A stretch of 64,000 bases of DNA, from positions 6,257-70,256 of the forward strand of contig CAWGBP010000005.1 of the NCBI GenBank assembly GCA_963820835.1, written 5' to 3'. Source of the stretch: Pirellulales bacterium (GTDB taxonomy: Bacteria > Planctomycetota > Planctomycetia > Pirellulales > JADZDJ01). The position numbers and the translations under genes are program-made. The notes under the pieces are model-generated. The model did no database searches, was not told the DNA's origin, and was given only the letters and a program-made list of their open reading frames with translations. Position 1 is the first letter of the stretch. Each line of letters begins with the position of its first letter. Of the stretch, positions 12,981 through 58,531 are shown piece after piece.

Positions 12981-14857
12981 TCAAGCTTGAGAAGGTCCCG
13001 CTTGATCTCTTCGAGAAAGTCGCATTTCCGGTGGCACAAAGAAATGGCGGGTGAAGTTGATCTCGTAGCCAATCTGCGTCTTTTCGTGCTCGATCCAGGC
13101 GTCTGACGCGTAGGGCAGTACTTCGCGCTGGAAAAACGCCTCGATGCCGCCGTTTTCGAGTAGCGGCACTTGCTCGGTGTCCCGCAGATCTGGGTCAGGT
13201 TCGTATTCTATGCCTGTCTTGGTCTTCTTGCGGATGACCGGCGGGGCATCTTGGTTCGTGCCATGCTCCTCTTTAAGTTTTTTGATTTCCTTGGCGGTGT
13301 AGACACGACCTGGATCAACGCCAGGGATTCGCAGCGGCGCTCCACAGCGATCTTCCAGTAGCCGAAAGCGGCGTTGGAAAAGATTTTGGACTGTGCAGTT
13401 TCCTGGAAGGCAAAAAAGATATCAATAATTCTGTTAATCTGTTCGGCTGACAGTTCACAGTTCTTTTTGCCGAGGCTCTTGCGCAACGGCGTGTAGATTT
13501 CCGTGGCGTCGACGAGCTGGATTTTGCCGCGGCGGTGGTCGGCCTTGCGGTTGGTTAGCACCCAGATGTAGGTGGCGATATTGGTGTTGTAGAACATGTT
13601 CAGCGGGAGGGCGATGATGGCTTCGAGCCAGTCATTTTCAATTATCCAGCGGCGGATGTTGCTTTCGCCTTGACCGGCATCGCCCGTGAAGAGAGAAGAG
13701 CCGTTGTGAACCTCGGCTATACGGCTGCCAATCGGAGTGCGGTCGGTAACGGGGACCATTTTCGAGAGCTTGTCGACGAGAAACATCATTTGCCCGTCGC
13801 TGGAGCGAGTGATGAGCGACAGCTCTTCGCCTTTGTGCTGGACGATGAAGCGTGGGTCCATCATTTGTCCCTTGCCCCCCATACGCTCCAGGTCGGTCTT
13901 CCAGCTCTTGCCGTAAGGCGGATTGGAGAGCATGAAGTCGAACTCCATCGAGGGAAATGCGCTCGCCGAGAGCGTCGAACCAAACTTCATGTTGTCGGCG
14001 GCCTGGCCTTCGCCTTTGAGCAGCAGGTCGGCTTTGCTGATGGCGTAGGTTTCGGGGTTGATCTCCTGCCCAAACAGGTGAATGGAGACGTCCTTGCCGT
14101 GCGCCTTGGCGAGGTCCAGGAGTGTTTCCTCGGCGACGGTTAGCATTCCGCCGGTGCCGCACGCGCCGTCATAAACTCGGTAGGTGGCGCTGCGGATGTC
14201 GTTGGCGATGGGTTGGAAGATCAGGTTCGCCATCAAGCGGACGACATCGCGCGGAGTGAAGTGCTCGCCGGCTTCTTCATTGTTTTCTTCGTTGAAGCGC
14301 CTGATGAGCTCCTCGAAGATTGTGCCCATGGAGTGATTGTCGAGCCCGGGCAGACGGATGGAGCCATCCGCGTTTTTGATCGGTTCGGGACTGAGGTTGA
14401 TGTCGTTGGTCGTGAACTTTTCGATGAGGCTTCCGAGAATGTCGGCTTCGACAAGTGTGGGAATCTGATTGCGGAATTTGAACTTCTCAAGAATCTCCTG
14501 AATGTTGGGGGAGAAGCCGTCGAGGTACGTTTCAAAATCGGCTTTGAGCTGCTGCTGCTTGGCGCGAGCGCGGAGGTCGCGGAGGGTGAACGGAGAAGTG
14601 TTGTAGAAGGACTTGGTACCGGAGGCATCGGCAAGCGCGCCATGCTTGTTTGCAACGCCGGATTTGTCTAGCTGTTCGTTGAGCTTGAGAACCGCTTGCT
14701 TGGTTGGTTCGAGGACGGCGTCGAGCCGACGAATGACAATCATCGGCAAAATAACGTCCCGATACTTACCGCGGACGTAATGGTCCCGAAGCACGTCGTC
14801 AGCGATGTTCCAGATAAAGCCTGCGATCCAATTGAGCTGCCCGTTTTCAGAAGCCAT
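12981..14857 (-). pseudogene. hsdM: Type I R-M N6-adenine DNA methyltransferase subunit (HsdM), interrupted by a 1-nt frameshift near 13338
   Basis: HsdM_N region, then the MTase motifs DGACGTGGML (motif I) and SNPPYG (NPPY). The main ORF ends in junk (RKSKNLKRSMARTKMPRRSSARRPRQA). The conserved HsdM C-terminus (VERPLRIPGVDPGRVYTAKEIKKLKEEHG...PLLENGGIEAFFQREVLPYASDAWIEHEKTQIGYEINFTRHFF) continues in another frame down to 12981. The junction is at gcgccgctgcg and needs one extra C. Confidence 0.85.
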
Positions 14858-14996
14858 GTGACCTACCCCGGCTGAGAAGCCCTTGGAGGGGGAAATTCAC
14901 AATATAGTGAGGTGCGAGGGCTGTTACAAACGTGGATGATGGAGGTTTGCCCTGGGACTGTGGGGCAAGAATTCCGCTTCCTAACGTGCTATACTG

Positions 14997-55300: not shown

Positions 55301-58300
55301 GCCGCCGATCTGGAAGGCCCGCAAGTTACCGATGTGCGGATCAGCGACCCCAACACGCCTCCCAACGGCACCGACGGCGAAAACTTGAATTACAACTTGT
55401 TTGGCCTGAAACCGAACAATGCGCCGCAAGGCCCCACTCCGCTCGTCAATTCGATCACAGTCAACTTCCAAGACTTGCCGGCCCGCTTCCCGGGCTTTCT
55501 CTATCCGGCCATCGACTACATGCTCACCGCCGACCAGGCCCGCGGCCTGTTCTCGGTGGTCGGCGATGCCAACGGCCAAGTGGCCATCAAGGAAGTCATC
55601 ATCCACAATGATGCCGTTACGCTCGGCGGAGTCCCAACGGCCGAAATCCAAATCATCTTCGAAAAAGCGCTACCCGACGATCGATTCACGCTGACCATCA
55701 GCGATAGCCTTCGCGATCCCGCCCAAAATGAGCTCGACGGCGAAAGCAACGCCTCCCAGCCCAACAACGGACCATTCTTCCCCAGCGGTGATGGCCACTC
55801 GGGCGGCGATTTCGTGGCCCGCTTCACCGTCGATACCCGACCCGAACTCGCCGATTTCGCCGCCGCTCGGGTCTATGTTGATATCAACGGCAACAGCATT
55901 TACGATCCCACCAACGCCGACTTCACCAACCGCGACCTCATCTTCACCATGCAGTTGGATCCCTCGCTGCTCGGTCGCGCTCAGCTCGGTGTCCACGACA
56001 GCGTGTTCGTCGGCAACTTCGCCAATAGTTCCGGCGTCGCCGACGGCTTCTCCAAGCTCGGCCTCTACGGCACCGATCCGGTCGCAGGCGTCGGTTTCCG
56101 CTGGCTCTTGGATACCGACGATAACGGCACCGCCGATCTGCTTTCCTTCCAAGCAACCGGCTTCACGATGTTCGACCAGAACGGCGCCCCTGTGGTGTTT
56201 AAAGGCAGCGGCATCGCTTTCGCTGGCAATTTCGACGGAAACGCCGACAACGGCGACGAAATCGGCCTGTTCGATGGAACTCACTTCTTCCTCGATACCA
56301 ATCACAATAATGTGATCGACTCCGGCGACACCGTCATCACTTCCGCATTGCGCGGCACCCCCATCGTCGGCGATTTCAACGGCGACGGCGCCATCGATTT
56401 GGGCACCTGGCAGAACGACGTTTTCCAGTTTAACTTCGGCGTCCCCGGCACCGGCGGCAACTCCGGCATTCCGGTGCAGTTAAGCGGCGCGGTCGATGCC
56501 ACCATCAACTTCGGCTTCCCAGGCGTCGGCGAAGTTCCCATTGCCGCCGACATGGATCACGACGGCATCACCGATATCGGGCTCTGGGTTCCCGGCCGCG
56601 CCGGCTCCAGCACCGCCGACATCGCAGAAACCTATTTCCTCATTTCCAACGATTTCGAAGCCAACGGCCTGCCGCGCAACACCGGCCTGACCGATCCCAA
56701 TGCCGCTTTCAACTTGCTGAACCACGCGTTCAGCCCCACGCCGCTAGGCAGCGATCTGTACTCGAACTTCCTCGACGAATTCGCCACGCCGATTGTCGGC
56801 AACTTCGATCCGCCGGTCGTCCCCAACTCGCCGCAGTTGGCGACCGACACCACTCCGCCTACCAGTTCCGTCAGCGCGCTTGCCGCCACGCAAACCTCGC
56901 TGGGATTCACCGTCCGTTGGAGCGGCTCCGACGCCAGCGGCATCGCCAGTTACGATGTGTACGTGTCCGACAATGGCGGCGCATTCACCCAGTGGCAGTC
57001 CGATACCACCAATACCTCCGCCGTCTTCACCGGCGTCAACGGCCACACCTACCGCTTCTTCAGCGTGGCGACCGACAATGCCGGCAACGTGCAAGACACC
57101 CCCGCCACCGCGCAAGCCAGCACCATCCTTGCCATTCGCTCACTCACCACCACTGTGTTGTCTGTCGCCAGCAGCACGGTGGTGCCCGGACAATCGGTTT
57201 CGTTCACGGCCGCGGTCAGCCCGGTCGATTCCAGCAATCCGGTTCCCGCCGGCACCGTCACCTTCAAAGATGGTAAGACCGTACTGGGAACCGTCACGTT
57301 GGTTAGCGGTCAGGCCACGTTCACTGCGGCAAGTCTGTCCGCAGGCAGTCACAGCATCACCGCCACGTACAATGCGCAGGCGCCCAGCGTCGGCAGCGTT
57401 TCGACGACGCTGGTCGAGCACGTCGTCAGCGCCGCGCTAGAGCCCAATCCGAACAATCCGGCACTGTCCGCATTGTTCGTCGGCGGCACCACGGGCAACG
57501 ACATCATCACCGTGTCGTTCGGTCCCTCGGGCGTCACTGTCTCGATCAGCAACAGTTCCACCAAGAACAAGACCACATCGCTCGGTACGTTTAACCCGCC
57601 GGGCGGAATGTTCGTGTTCGGCCTGGGAGGGACCGATACCCTTGTGGCCCCTAACATGGCCAACGCGTGGAACATCACCGGCGCTAATTCCGGCACGCTC
57701 AACGGCAACCCGTTCAATAGCATCGAAAACATCACCGGTGGCAGCCTGGCTGACGTGTTCCAATTGAATGCCGGCGGCAGCCTCAGCGGCACGATCAACG
57801 GCGGCGCCGGCGCCGACACGCTGGTGGGCGCCAACCAGGCCAATACCTGGAGCGTCAGCAATTCCAACGCCGGCAAGCTGAACGGCACCTCATTCACCGG
57901 AATCGAAAATCTTTCCGGCGGCAACCAGAACGACAACTTCGTGCTCGCAAAATCGAAGGGAGTTACCGGCCACATCGACGGCGGGGCGGGCATCAACATG
58001 CTCGACTACGCCGCATACTCAAGCTCGGTCGTCGTCAATCTCGCCACCGGCACGGCCACGAACATCGGCGGCGGCATCGGCAACATCAGCGTGGTGCGAG
58101 GCGGCTCAGGAAATGACACGCTGACCGCCGACAACGGCAACGATGTGTTGATCGGCGGCTCCGGCAGCGACAAGCTCTTCGCCGCAGGCGGCCGCGCGTT
58201 GCTCTTCGGCGGAACTGGCGCCGATACGCTCGCTGGCGGCGCCGGCGAAAGCATCCTCTTCAGCGGCACCACTAAGTTCGACAGCAATCTGGCAATGATC

Positions 58301-58531
58301 GATAATCTGCTCGCCTACTGGTCGCGCACCGATCTCGATTACGCTACGCGCGTGAGCAGCCTGAAAGTCGGCGTGTCCGGAATCTCCCCGCTGAACTCCA
58401 CCAATGTGACCAACGACACTTCCGCCGACACACTCACCGGCGGCAGCGGATTGGATTGGTACTTCGCCAAACTTTCGGGAAGCTCGAAAGATACCGTGAG
58501 CGGCCAGAGCAGCGATGAACAGGTAAATTAG
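52320..58531 (+). CDS. Giant secreted modular adhesin-like protein (~2050 aa) with at least three frameshifts (near 52345, 52920, 53190)
   Basis: N-terminal MRRNSNHKK...LEERQMLS Planctomycete-type leader. The ~400-aa module TVDSS...DGGxGxDxL...NLEPV...NAINYT...IDAGAGxDxINL...GGDPTASDT is shared with the next gene. FG-GAP-like repeats (GDFNGDGAIDLG, DMDHDGITDIG). FN3-like and Ig-like domains. RTX-like GGxGxDxL repeats at the C-terminus. Confidence 0.7.

Follow-up and report, generated by a model that had tools for sequence, protein, structure and literature searches.

Frame changes in ten genes of a Pirellulales contig are likely assembly indels rather than marks of pseudogenes

In decaying genomes, such as those of Mycobacterium leprae, Sodalis and recent host-restricted pathogens, many genes are frameshifted with their halves still recognisable, and nonsense mutations, deletions, IS expansion and eroded downstream sequence are found in addition. 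In programmed −1 or +1 frameshifting, as described for IS1 and IS3 transposases, dnaX and prfB, two overlapping ORFs yield one protein. Metagenome-assembled genomes (MAGs) built from Nanopore reads only carry isolated 1–2-nt indels in conserved genes at about 0.2–0.4 per kb, with more deletions than insertions, at positions that differ between related MAGs, and with gene calls that are split or truncated. The stretch of Pirellulales (Planctomycetota) DNA analysed here, a window of 64,000 nt, shares these features of Nanopore-only MAGs, except that its junctions lie mostly at runs of 1–3 bases and not at long homopolymers. Unlike decaying genomes, it shows small indels only, with downstream frames intact and conserved. 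It differs from cases of programmed frameshifting in that its junctions have neither a conserved slippery site nor a stimulator, the shift is absent from orthologues, and the IS concerned belongs to the IS4 family, for whose transposases we know of no use of frameshifting.

The window holds about 45 genes; 10 of them contain a total of 13 frame changes, all located from 11.2 to 53.2 kb. In 11 of these changes, consecutive residues of a homologue, profile or paralogue fall in adjacent frames, and since two frames match contiguous parts of the same family, chance alone is not the cause; the remaining two, in the leader of a Ser/Thr kinase (STK) and at the first shift of a giant surface gene, are graded as probable. 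Each affected gene carries one to three 1–2-base indels, the shift being −1 in eight events and +1 (or −2) in five, and the density of events in the window is 0.2–0.3 per kb. The genes belong to unrelated classes (housekeeping, defence, regulatory, mobile and surface), and core metabolic genes were struck as often as mobile ones. The preliminary description had put the number of events at ten or more in 64 kb, with insertions as well as deletions and with named genes split across adjacent frames; our count upholds the first two statements, and the third holds for 10/10 genes. Among the genes that could be checked, no in-frame stop was found in the true frames and the ORF map revealed no large deletion or other lesion, while stop-to-stop maps showed that no downstream frame closes before the natural C-terminus. 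Pfam searches and three-frame maps of the remaining ORFs gave no further frameshifts. A homology-free hidden Markov model of coding frame, based on codon usage, independently picked up the shifts of hsdM, the IS4 transposase, PPK2 and the second and third shifts of the giant gene; this model is blind in the lower-GC island at 14.8–23.4 kb and misses short tails. As the C-terminal tails of hsdM, the IS4 transposase and xdhB lie outside Pfam coverage, NCBIfam profiles and homologues were used for them instead.

The PPK2 polyphosphate kinase gene (43366..44255, + strand) undergoes a −1 shift within 43962–43971, at the 3' edge of a T5 run. Positions 8–169 of PF03976 match frame f0 and positions 154–223 frame f2; residues 9–215 of an orthologue (L001) map to frame +1 and residues 201–304 to frame +3, the join reading RKRFL/ARIDNPDKHWKF, and a second orthologue (L002) supports the same split. 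The codon-usage model changes frame at 43953/4. In xdhB, which encodes the Mo-binding subunit of xanthine dehydrogenase (45938..48465, + strand), the junction lies at 48161–48168, where TCG GTG is read as TCGTG (−1); positions 1–702 of TIGR02965 match frame f1 and positions 689–754 frame f0, and the orthologues of four relatives (L001, L002, L003 and L004) pass from frame +2 to frame +1 at 48166–48169. Both junctions agree with the sites first proposed, the T5 run at 43963–43967 and ~48160, respectively.

These two genes bear on the question of whether the frameshifts are real and very recent inactivating mutations, that is, true pseudogenes in a decaying lineage or a mutator strain. In favour of this reading, both the deposited sequence and its public gene calls contain the indels, and broken IS4 transposases and restriction-modification (R-M) methylases are often met with in nature. 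On the other side, 13 frameshifts are set beside no nonsense mutation, no large deletion and no secondary lesion, and they fall on core metabolism no less than on mobile genes. Moreover, there is no erosion behind the junctions: PPK2 is 81% identical to its orthologues upstream and 79–84% downstream, and xdhB 83% upstream and 76% downstream. The organism also resembles free-living Pirellulales with giant surface genes and not a reduced symbiont. The relatives' orthologues are single ORFs at the junction positions, as the comparison with related genomes suggested earlier has now established, and since these orthologues are unbroken the lesions were not inherited; the closest non-self matches are 64–83% identical, with no same-species genome among them. 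Considering also that the occurrence of frame changes in the relatives follows the sequencing platform (see below), we regard real mutation as unlikely. That the indels are both real and fixed is highly improbable; about a quarter of the genes of a free-living Pirellulales bacterium would then be frameshifted, among them xdhB, PPK2, the ECF sigma/kinase pair and the type I methylase. Such a state would point to a mutator burst in the very recent past, or else to a so far unrecognised way, independent of sequence, of tolerating or correcting frameshifts at the level of expression.

A gene for a VOC/glyoxalase-fold protein of ~120 aa (42923..43283, + strand) changes frame within 42951–42975, a segment with T6 and C7 runs. 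Residues 1–17 of the S. meliloti VOC protein WP_088196696 align in frame +2 (42923–42973) and residues 11–116 in frame +3 (42951–43277), in keeping with the range of 42953–42973 given in the preliminary description. The shift is +1 or −2, and it is the −2 repair that scores highest against Pfam (33.6 bits, starting at profile position 2); in a PDB search with the VOC protein only the C-terminal half aligned. In the IS4-family transposase gene (34831..36235, + strand), the junction at 35853–35860 includes the previously suggested site of ~35857, and NF033592 runs contiguously across it: profile positions 1–295 match the f0 ORF (residues 29–342, ending at 35856) and positions 297–332 the f1 piece from 35858, while the match to Pfam DDE_Tnp_1 breaks off at 165/200. 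The shift may be +1, but a 2-nt deletion within a CGCGCG repeat is more likely. Taken alone, this IS4 copy could be a real pseudogene.

Programmed recoding is known from some IS families and from a few cellular genes, and A/T runs lie near the junctions of PPK2, the VOC gene and the first shift of the giant gene, so that ribosomal frameshifting or transcriptional slippage restoring full-length proteins had to be considered. Against such recoding, shifts occur in both directions, and the 13 junctions share no slippery motif; their contexts are heterogeneous, and no 4-mer remains enriched after correction for 136 tests. This includes GCGC, considered as a methylation-like motif, which lay near 6/12 junctions compared with 2.15 expected (P = 0.011 before correction for the 136 4-mers, not significant after it). 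As the orthologues of every gene are unbroken single ORFs, programmed recoding is effectively refuted, and we give it a negligible probability.

Three of the split genes lie in or next to the defence genes of the window. Between hsdR and hsdS, on the minus strand, two small ORFs (10606..11554) belong together as a single gene, whose 307-aa family is uncharacterised. A mapping based on 22 homologues of ~300–310 aa places homologue residues 3–96 in frame −1 (11518–11237) and residues 94–307 in frame −2 (11244–10609), with a +1 junction at 11233–11246; the simplest candidate for the extra base is the C of ATT(C)GGG near 11236, and not a base of the T4 run. The idea that the ORFs at 10606..11232 and 11123..11500 are one gene in need of a single indel was thus correct, the 307-aa homologues spanning both frames. 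The type I methyltransferase subunit gene hsdM (12929..14857, − strand) contains two shifts. At the first (13334–13341), CGC CCG is read as CGCCG (−1), and the HSPs of all homologues break off at 13337 (FGYWKIAVER) and continue in frame −3 with PLR.... At the second (13014–13021, ~13017), CTT is read as CTTT on the minus strand (+1): residues 500–563 of the homologue P0153 map to frame −3 (13211–13020) and residues 565–590 to frame −1 (13015–12938). The break at ~13338 reported in the preliminary description is therefore supported by the homologue HSPs, but the second shift had been overlooked. Pfam and TIGR00497 matches to hsdM are truncated, and PDB searches with its C-terminal pieces gave no matches.

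In relatives, an RNase_H_2-DUF429-adenylate-kinase fusion gene encodes a protein of ~745 aa; here (14997..17260, + strand) it is broken into an ORF of 555 aa and a kinase that lacks a start codon. Residues 4–548 of the homologue P0026 (744 aa, 68% identity) align in frame +3 and residues 538–744 in frame +2, and both PF13482 and PF00406 are found in ~30 fusion homologues of 710–750 aa. The adk profile begins at the ninth residue of the f1 piece, upstream of which there is no start codon. The deposited annotation of the source contig (95,421 bp; NCBI and ENA) already lists the fragments as a 188-aa kinase without a P-loop (P0024) and a 538-aa exonuclease (P0025). That one fusion gene is split by a shift, as first surmised, is confirmed by P0026; the site, however, is not the T5 run at 16656–16660 but 16643–16654, where an A is missing in CAAACAGA (−1).

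In the ECF sigma factor gene (22718..23328, + strand), region 2 is read in f1 and region 4 in f0, Sigma70_r2 lying within 22718–23113 and Sigma70_r4_2 within 22936–23325. An intact sigma factor of a relative (L033) maps with residues 115–219 to frame +2, ending at 23041, and with residues 220–313 to frame +1 from 23041; the junction is at 23038–23044, where CTA AGG is read as CTAGG (−1). The frame split is therefore real, and its position is moved by this mapping from the ~23095 initially proposed to 23041. Downstream of it lies the STK gene (23356..25097, + strand), with an N-terminal leader that opens at ATG 23356 in frame f0. This leader is probably joined to the f2 body by a −1 shift at 23461–23470, a range that includes the site of ~23465 put forward earlier; the candidates are a GGGG shortened to GGG and an AAA shortened to AA. 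A leader HMM built from four relatives matches the f2 piece at HMM positions 25–59 (E = 3.8e-9) and the f0 piece at positions 11–32, a weak match (E = 0.65), and the shift is graded as probable; the match lies at the expected place and profile coordinates, and is the second best of the leader HMM in the whole six-frame window. Alternatively, the gene may be intact and start at ATG 23451.

The giant surface/RTX-like protein gene (52320..58531, + strand) would encode ~2,070 aa when repaired, and contains three shifts. Two of those claimed at the outset, at ~52920 and 53191, are established by a paralogue and by the codon-usage model: residues 39–113 of the paralogue (58881–64000) match frame f1, residues 101–186 frame f0 (E = 6e-17) and residues 184–330 frame f1 again (E = 1e-41), and the model reads f1, f0 and f1 with switches at 52914/5 and 53178/9. 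This places the second shift (f1 to f0, −1) at 52913–52922 and the third (f0 to f1, +1) at 53184–53195. The first (f2 to f1, −1), attributed before to an A6 run at 52341, is probably real and falls within 52329–52420, where A6 and A4 runs are present. Frame f1 has no ATG, GTG or TTG between 52262 and 52451, upstream of the LEER motif, while in f2 the ATG at 52320 opens MRRN... with LEER ~38 aa downstream, a start and spacing that match the paralogue.

The events are unevenly spread, with none in 1–10.6 kb and none in 53.2–64 kb (our own range test, P ~0.03), which counts against the long-read explanation favoured below. This distribution could suggest strain collapse, in which the assembler merged close strains differing by small indels into a chimeric consensus, still an artefact. 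Two events fall in hsdM and three within 870 nt of the giant gene, with none in the 21 kb of flanks, and the lower-GC defence island at 10.6–23 kb is likely to vary between strains. By our own calculation, though, the clustering is not significant (4/12 gaps below 600 nt, compared with ~2 expected), the syntenic core genes PPK2 and xdhB were struck too, and real strain differences in conserved coding sequence are substitutions or in-frame changes rather than frameshifts. We consider strain collapse very unlikely.

Junctions had been described as lying at or beside short homopolymers, a link that proved weak. Runs of at least 5 bases are touched by 3/13 junctions, compared with 0.8 expected (P = 0.036), and there is no enrichment for runs of at least 3 or at least 4; nine or ten of the 13 junctions involve no run longer than 3 bases, and the 50 runs of at least 6 bases in the window are mostly read in frame. 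The junctions are thus not clearly driven by homopolymers, which takes away one classic signature, and the weak signal fits R10-type or low-coverage errors.

The nearest relatives (77–83% amino acid identity) are Nanopore-only MAGs of Microflora Danica, assembled by Flye (nano-hq) and polished with a single Medaka round and no short reads (PMC12313526); their authors report that the catalogue was checked for Nanopore-associated errors (PMC12313526), and the need for polishing is discussed elsewhere (PMC9262707). Frame changes in xdhA/B/C, PPK2 and esterase genes were found in 7/8 of these Nanopore-only loci (1–5 each, 17 in all), at positions that differ from those of the window, compared with 0/20 short-read or isolate loci (Fisher P ~7e-6, our own calculation from the counts). 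Their density of ~0.4 per kb is comparable with that of the window, and among relatives the occurrence of frame changes follows sequencing platform rather than phylogeny. Frame changes in three relatives seem to coincide near xdhB residue 390, but this was rejected as a common site, being in a variable linker with differing directions of shift.

We therefore assign a probability of roughly 0.85 to the 13 frame changes being long-read consensus indels and not biology, in line with the original suggestion of assembly indels rather than pseudogenes; the restriction to small indels, the conserved downstream sequence, the intact orthologues of relatives and the platform pattern all support it. The contig consensus would hold uncorrected 1–2-base insertion and deletion errors, in a pattern typical of long-read metagenome assembly at modest coverage, most plausibly Nanopore-only, and each error would shift the frame of an otherwise intact gene, producing truncated proteins, split ORF pairs and pseudogene calls. 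We infer that this contig is the product of such a platform and that its reads would not bear the indels out. Judging from sequence, the affected genes are most likely functional in the organism. Pseudogene calls in this window are provisional, as had been advised, the downstream frames being open and conserved and free of nonsense mutations in the genes checked.

The value of these results lies in quality control and not in new biology. About a quarter of the window's genes would be mis-annotated as truncated, split or pseudogene, for example a "kinase" without P-loop, a "pseudo" hsdM or two "hypothetical" ORFs that are one gene, and the giant gene as called would lose its signal-bearing N-terminus. 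Indel-aware gene calling or polishing is needed before any inference is drawn from the contig, be it an inactive R-M system, a lost xanthine dehydrogenase or PPK2, a dead IS or a domain architecture. The clade's public Nanopore-only MAGs, with ~0.2–0.4 frameshifts per kb in conserved genes, would affect pangenome and pseudogene statistics likewise. Rfam and tRNA scans of the window returned no matches. The sole other damaged gene in the window is a truncated integrase remnant.

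Each claimed site was translated in three frames, the test being whether one homologue or profile mapped consecutively onto two of them. The preliminary description had reported genes split across adjacent frames by both insertions and deletions, and consecutive mapping of homologues, profiles or a paralogue confirmed and extended this observation. In total, 13 events were counted, affecting 10 of some 45 genes; eight were losses of one base (-1) and five were gains of one or losses of two (+1 or -2). Pfam scans and three-frame maps of the remaining ORFs revealed no further frameshifts. 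Moreover, a homology-free hidden Markov model (HMM) of coding frame, based on codon usage, also changed frame at the hsdM, IS4 and PPK2 junctions.

TIGR02965 positions 1-702 and 689-754 were found in two frames of xdhB, in agreement with four orthologues, and Pfam positions 8-169 and 154-223 in two frames of PPK2, where orthologues also agreed. The IS4 transposase matched NF033592 positions 1-295 and 297-332 in two frames, and residues 1-17 and 11-116 of a Sinorhizobium VOC protein mapped to frames +2 and +3. For the IS4 and VOC events, profile and homologue spacing favours 2-nt deletions, in short repeats of CG and CA, rather than 1-nt insertions. The ECF sigma factor does carry a shift, with regions 2 and 4 in separate frames, but an intact relative changes frame exactly at 23041, ~55 nt upstream of the T5 run (~23095) at which it had been placed. 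In the leader of the following Ser/Thr kinase (STK), an HMM of four relatives' N-termini matched the f2 body at profile positions 25-59 (E = 3.8e-9), whereas the f0 piece matched positions 11-32 with E = 0.65 only, as the second-best hit in the six-frame window and in the right place. The change proposed at ~23465 is accordingly graded as only probable.

In hsdM, all homologue alignments stopped after '...FGYWKIAVER' at 13337 and restarted with 'PLR...' in the adjacent frame, in keeping with the reported ~13338. A second shift in this gene had been overlooked: residues 500-563 of the homologue P0153 align in frame -3 as far as 13020, residues 565-590 ('LDEIKADL...') in frame -1 from 13015 onwards, leaving 4 nt where one codon is expected and hence indicating a +1 event. 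The two small ORFs downstream of hsdS proved to be one gene, as suspected, with ~307-aa homologues mapping residues 3-96 to frame -1 and 94-307 to frame -2. The shift comes after 'FWI'; homologues have 'YWIGMTF', so the extra base adjoins ATT[C]GGG and is not in the T4 run. The repaired gene (10606-11554, minus strand) belongs to an uncharacterised ~307-aa family with 22 homologues, one annotated from Schlesneria, and its product had no Pfam or NCBIfam match. Given its location between hsdR and hsdS, it may have an accessory role in the type I system. In the best relatives of the exonuclease and kinase ORFs, RNase_H_2, DUF429 and adenylate-kinase domains are combined in one protein of 735-750 aa; for the homologue P0026, residues 4-548 aligned in frame +3 and residues 538-744 in frame +2. 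The suspected shift therefore exists, but its junction, placed against 'DPIRTRGVFLTG' in P0026, lies at 16643-16654, short of the T5 run (16656-16660) where it had been placed. Once repaired, this gene (14997-17260, plus strand), which adjoins the type I restriction-modification (R-M) system, encodes a ~745-aa protein with RNase_H_2 (YprB-like), DUF429 and adenylate-kinase-like domains; dozens of metagenome proteins from planctomycetes (P0026-P0054) share this fusion.

A tandem pair of giant paralogues, each of >1,700 aa, occupies 52320-58531 and 58881-64000 on the plus strand, and the second continues past the window end. Their N-terminal parts are 32-50% identical, with the N-terminus 'MRRN...LE(E/D)R' common to both, and Big_3_5 and RTX repeats are also present in the first. 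Three shifts had been claimed in this first gene. The second and third were borne out by the paralogue, whose residues 39-113, 101-186 and 184-330 mapped to frames f1, f0 and f1, and independently by the codon-usage HMM, which changed frame at 52914/5 and 53178/9. The first is only probable, as judged from start codon and motif spacing: no start codon is present in frame f1 between 52262 and 52451, so the conserved 'RFEQLEERQMLS' motif would fall upstream of any start, and the f2 ATG at 52320 begins 'MRRN...' with the motif ~38 residues downstream, both as in the paralogue.

Junctions do lie at or next to short homopolymers, as asserted, but this carries almost no information, since runs of at least 3 bases occur at ~44 per kb. 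No enrichment was detected at runs of at least 3 or at least 4 bases, and 9 or 10 of the 13 events are at 1-3-base runs; the window's 50 runs of at least 6 bases are nearly all within intact ORFs. Enrichment was seen only for runs of at least 5 bases, touched by three junction intervals (VOC T6/C7, PPK2 T5 and A6 at the first giant-gene shift) versus 0.8 expected (P = 0.036). GCGC was found near 6/12 junctions (uncorrected P = 0.011), and none of the 136 4-mers tested was enriched after multiple-test correction. That the frame changes represent programmed recoding is hardly credible, given these heterogeneous contexts and orthologues that are single ORFs. All 13 events fall within 11.2-53.2 kb (range test, P ~0.03), with the first 10.6 kb and the last 10.8 kb (giant-gene body and paralogue) event-free, an uneven spread that may reflect chance or local depth variation.

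Comparison of relatives by sequencing platform provided the decisive evidence on the nature of the frame changes. An xdhB scan of species-representative genomes gave 'Pirellulales bacterium' MAGs of the Microflora Danica (MFD) as nearest loci (77-83% aa identity), with Bythopirellula and Lacipirellulaceae further off; synteny with the closest MFD loci spans ~40 to 50.4 kb. The repaired xdhA, xdhB, xdhC, PPK2 and esterase proteins were mapped onto 30 related xdh loci, among which MFD long-read MAGs were marked by Flye-style 'contig_N' names. Frame changes were present in 7/8 MFD long-read loci (1-5 each, 17 in total), at positions unlike the window's and unlike one another's, versus 0/20 loci from short-read assemblies or the Bythopirellula isolate (Fisher, ~7e-6). 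The density in the window, 0.2 per kb overall and 0.3 per kb across 10.6-53.2 kb, is comparable to that in MFD relatives (~0.4 per kb of conserved coding sequence). The affected Nanopore-only MAGs (L001, L002, L006, L020, L021, L025 and L028) carry their changes in xdhA/B/C and the esterase gene. L002 is a circular chromosome, L020 has three changes in xdhB alone, and the xdhB shift of L028 is ~10 nt or less from that of the window, in different local sequence. According to its authors, the MFD catalogue was itself checked for Nanopore-associated errors, and its lower-coverage MAGs had reduced coding density (PMC12313526).

The most likely cause, with a probability of roughly 85%, is consensus indels that entered when long reads of modest depth were base-called or assembled, which supports the original proposal of assembly indels rather than pseudogenes. 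Each such indel would move the frame of an otherwise intact gene, and gene callers would then output a shortened N-terminal ORF and a start-less C-terminal ORF, or choose an ATG further on; an example among the public calls is the 188-aa 'kinase', which starts after its P-loop. The window contig presumably comes from the same platform, with reads that would contradict its consensus. Real, recent pseudogenes are unlikely, though plausible for the IS4 copy alone: there are 13 frameshifts yet no in-frame stop in the checkable genes and no internal deletion. Every downstream frame is open to its natural C-terminus with conservation near the upstream level (PPK2 identity 81% upstream vs 79-84% downstream, xdhB 83% vs 76%), and related genomes have unbroken orthologues at the junction positions. 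Strain heterogeneity collapsed in the consensus, still an artefact, is less likely again. The frame changes are judged to be a matter of data quality, of an already documented type, rather than of biology.

Encoded in the window (G+C ~56%) are ECF-sigma/Ser-Thr-kinase pairs, an xdhABC operon, the type I R-M system and giant secreted proteins whose N-termini carry the motif 'LE(E/D)R'. Two public gene calls of the source, P0024 and P0025, are both 100% identical to it. A lower-GC island (4852-22259, GC 0.49-0.55) resembles a defence island and comprises a SIR2_2+TPR protein (4852-6777), DUF4365 (6811-7518), a 716-aa AAA ATPase (17254-19404), an adenylosuccinate-synthetase-like protein that is short at 352 aa (19394-20452) and overlaps the ATPase, hsdR/S/M, the RNase H-kinase fusion and HTH proteins. 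At its edge, a ~115-aa C-terminal remnant of a putative tyrosine recombinase/integrase (4490-4840, plus strand), recognised by eye from 'DLRRAYGTRWA...IETTLKYY', has no space for the N-terminal two-thirds and would, unlike the frameshifts, be a genuine truncation. A VapC-like PIN-domain gene (33876-34277, minus strand) overlaps the preceding 83-aa ORF (34274-34525) by 4 nt, a layout typical of toxin-antitoxin pairs; the two lie a short distance upstream of the IS4 copy. Finally, a 153-nt element (41692-41845), without match in Rfam and tRNA searches, shows ~80% DNA identity to L001, L002 and L020, where it forms two tandem copies ~250 nt apart; its possible product is a 36-aa basic peptide (from an ATG at 41747 with AGGAG in front) or a non-coding RNA.
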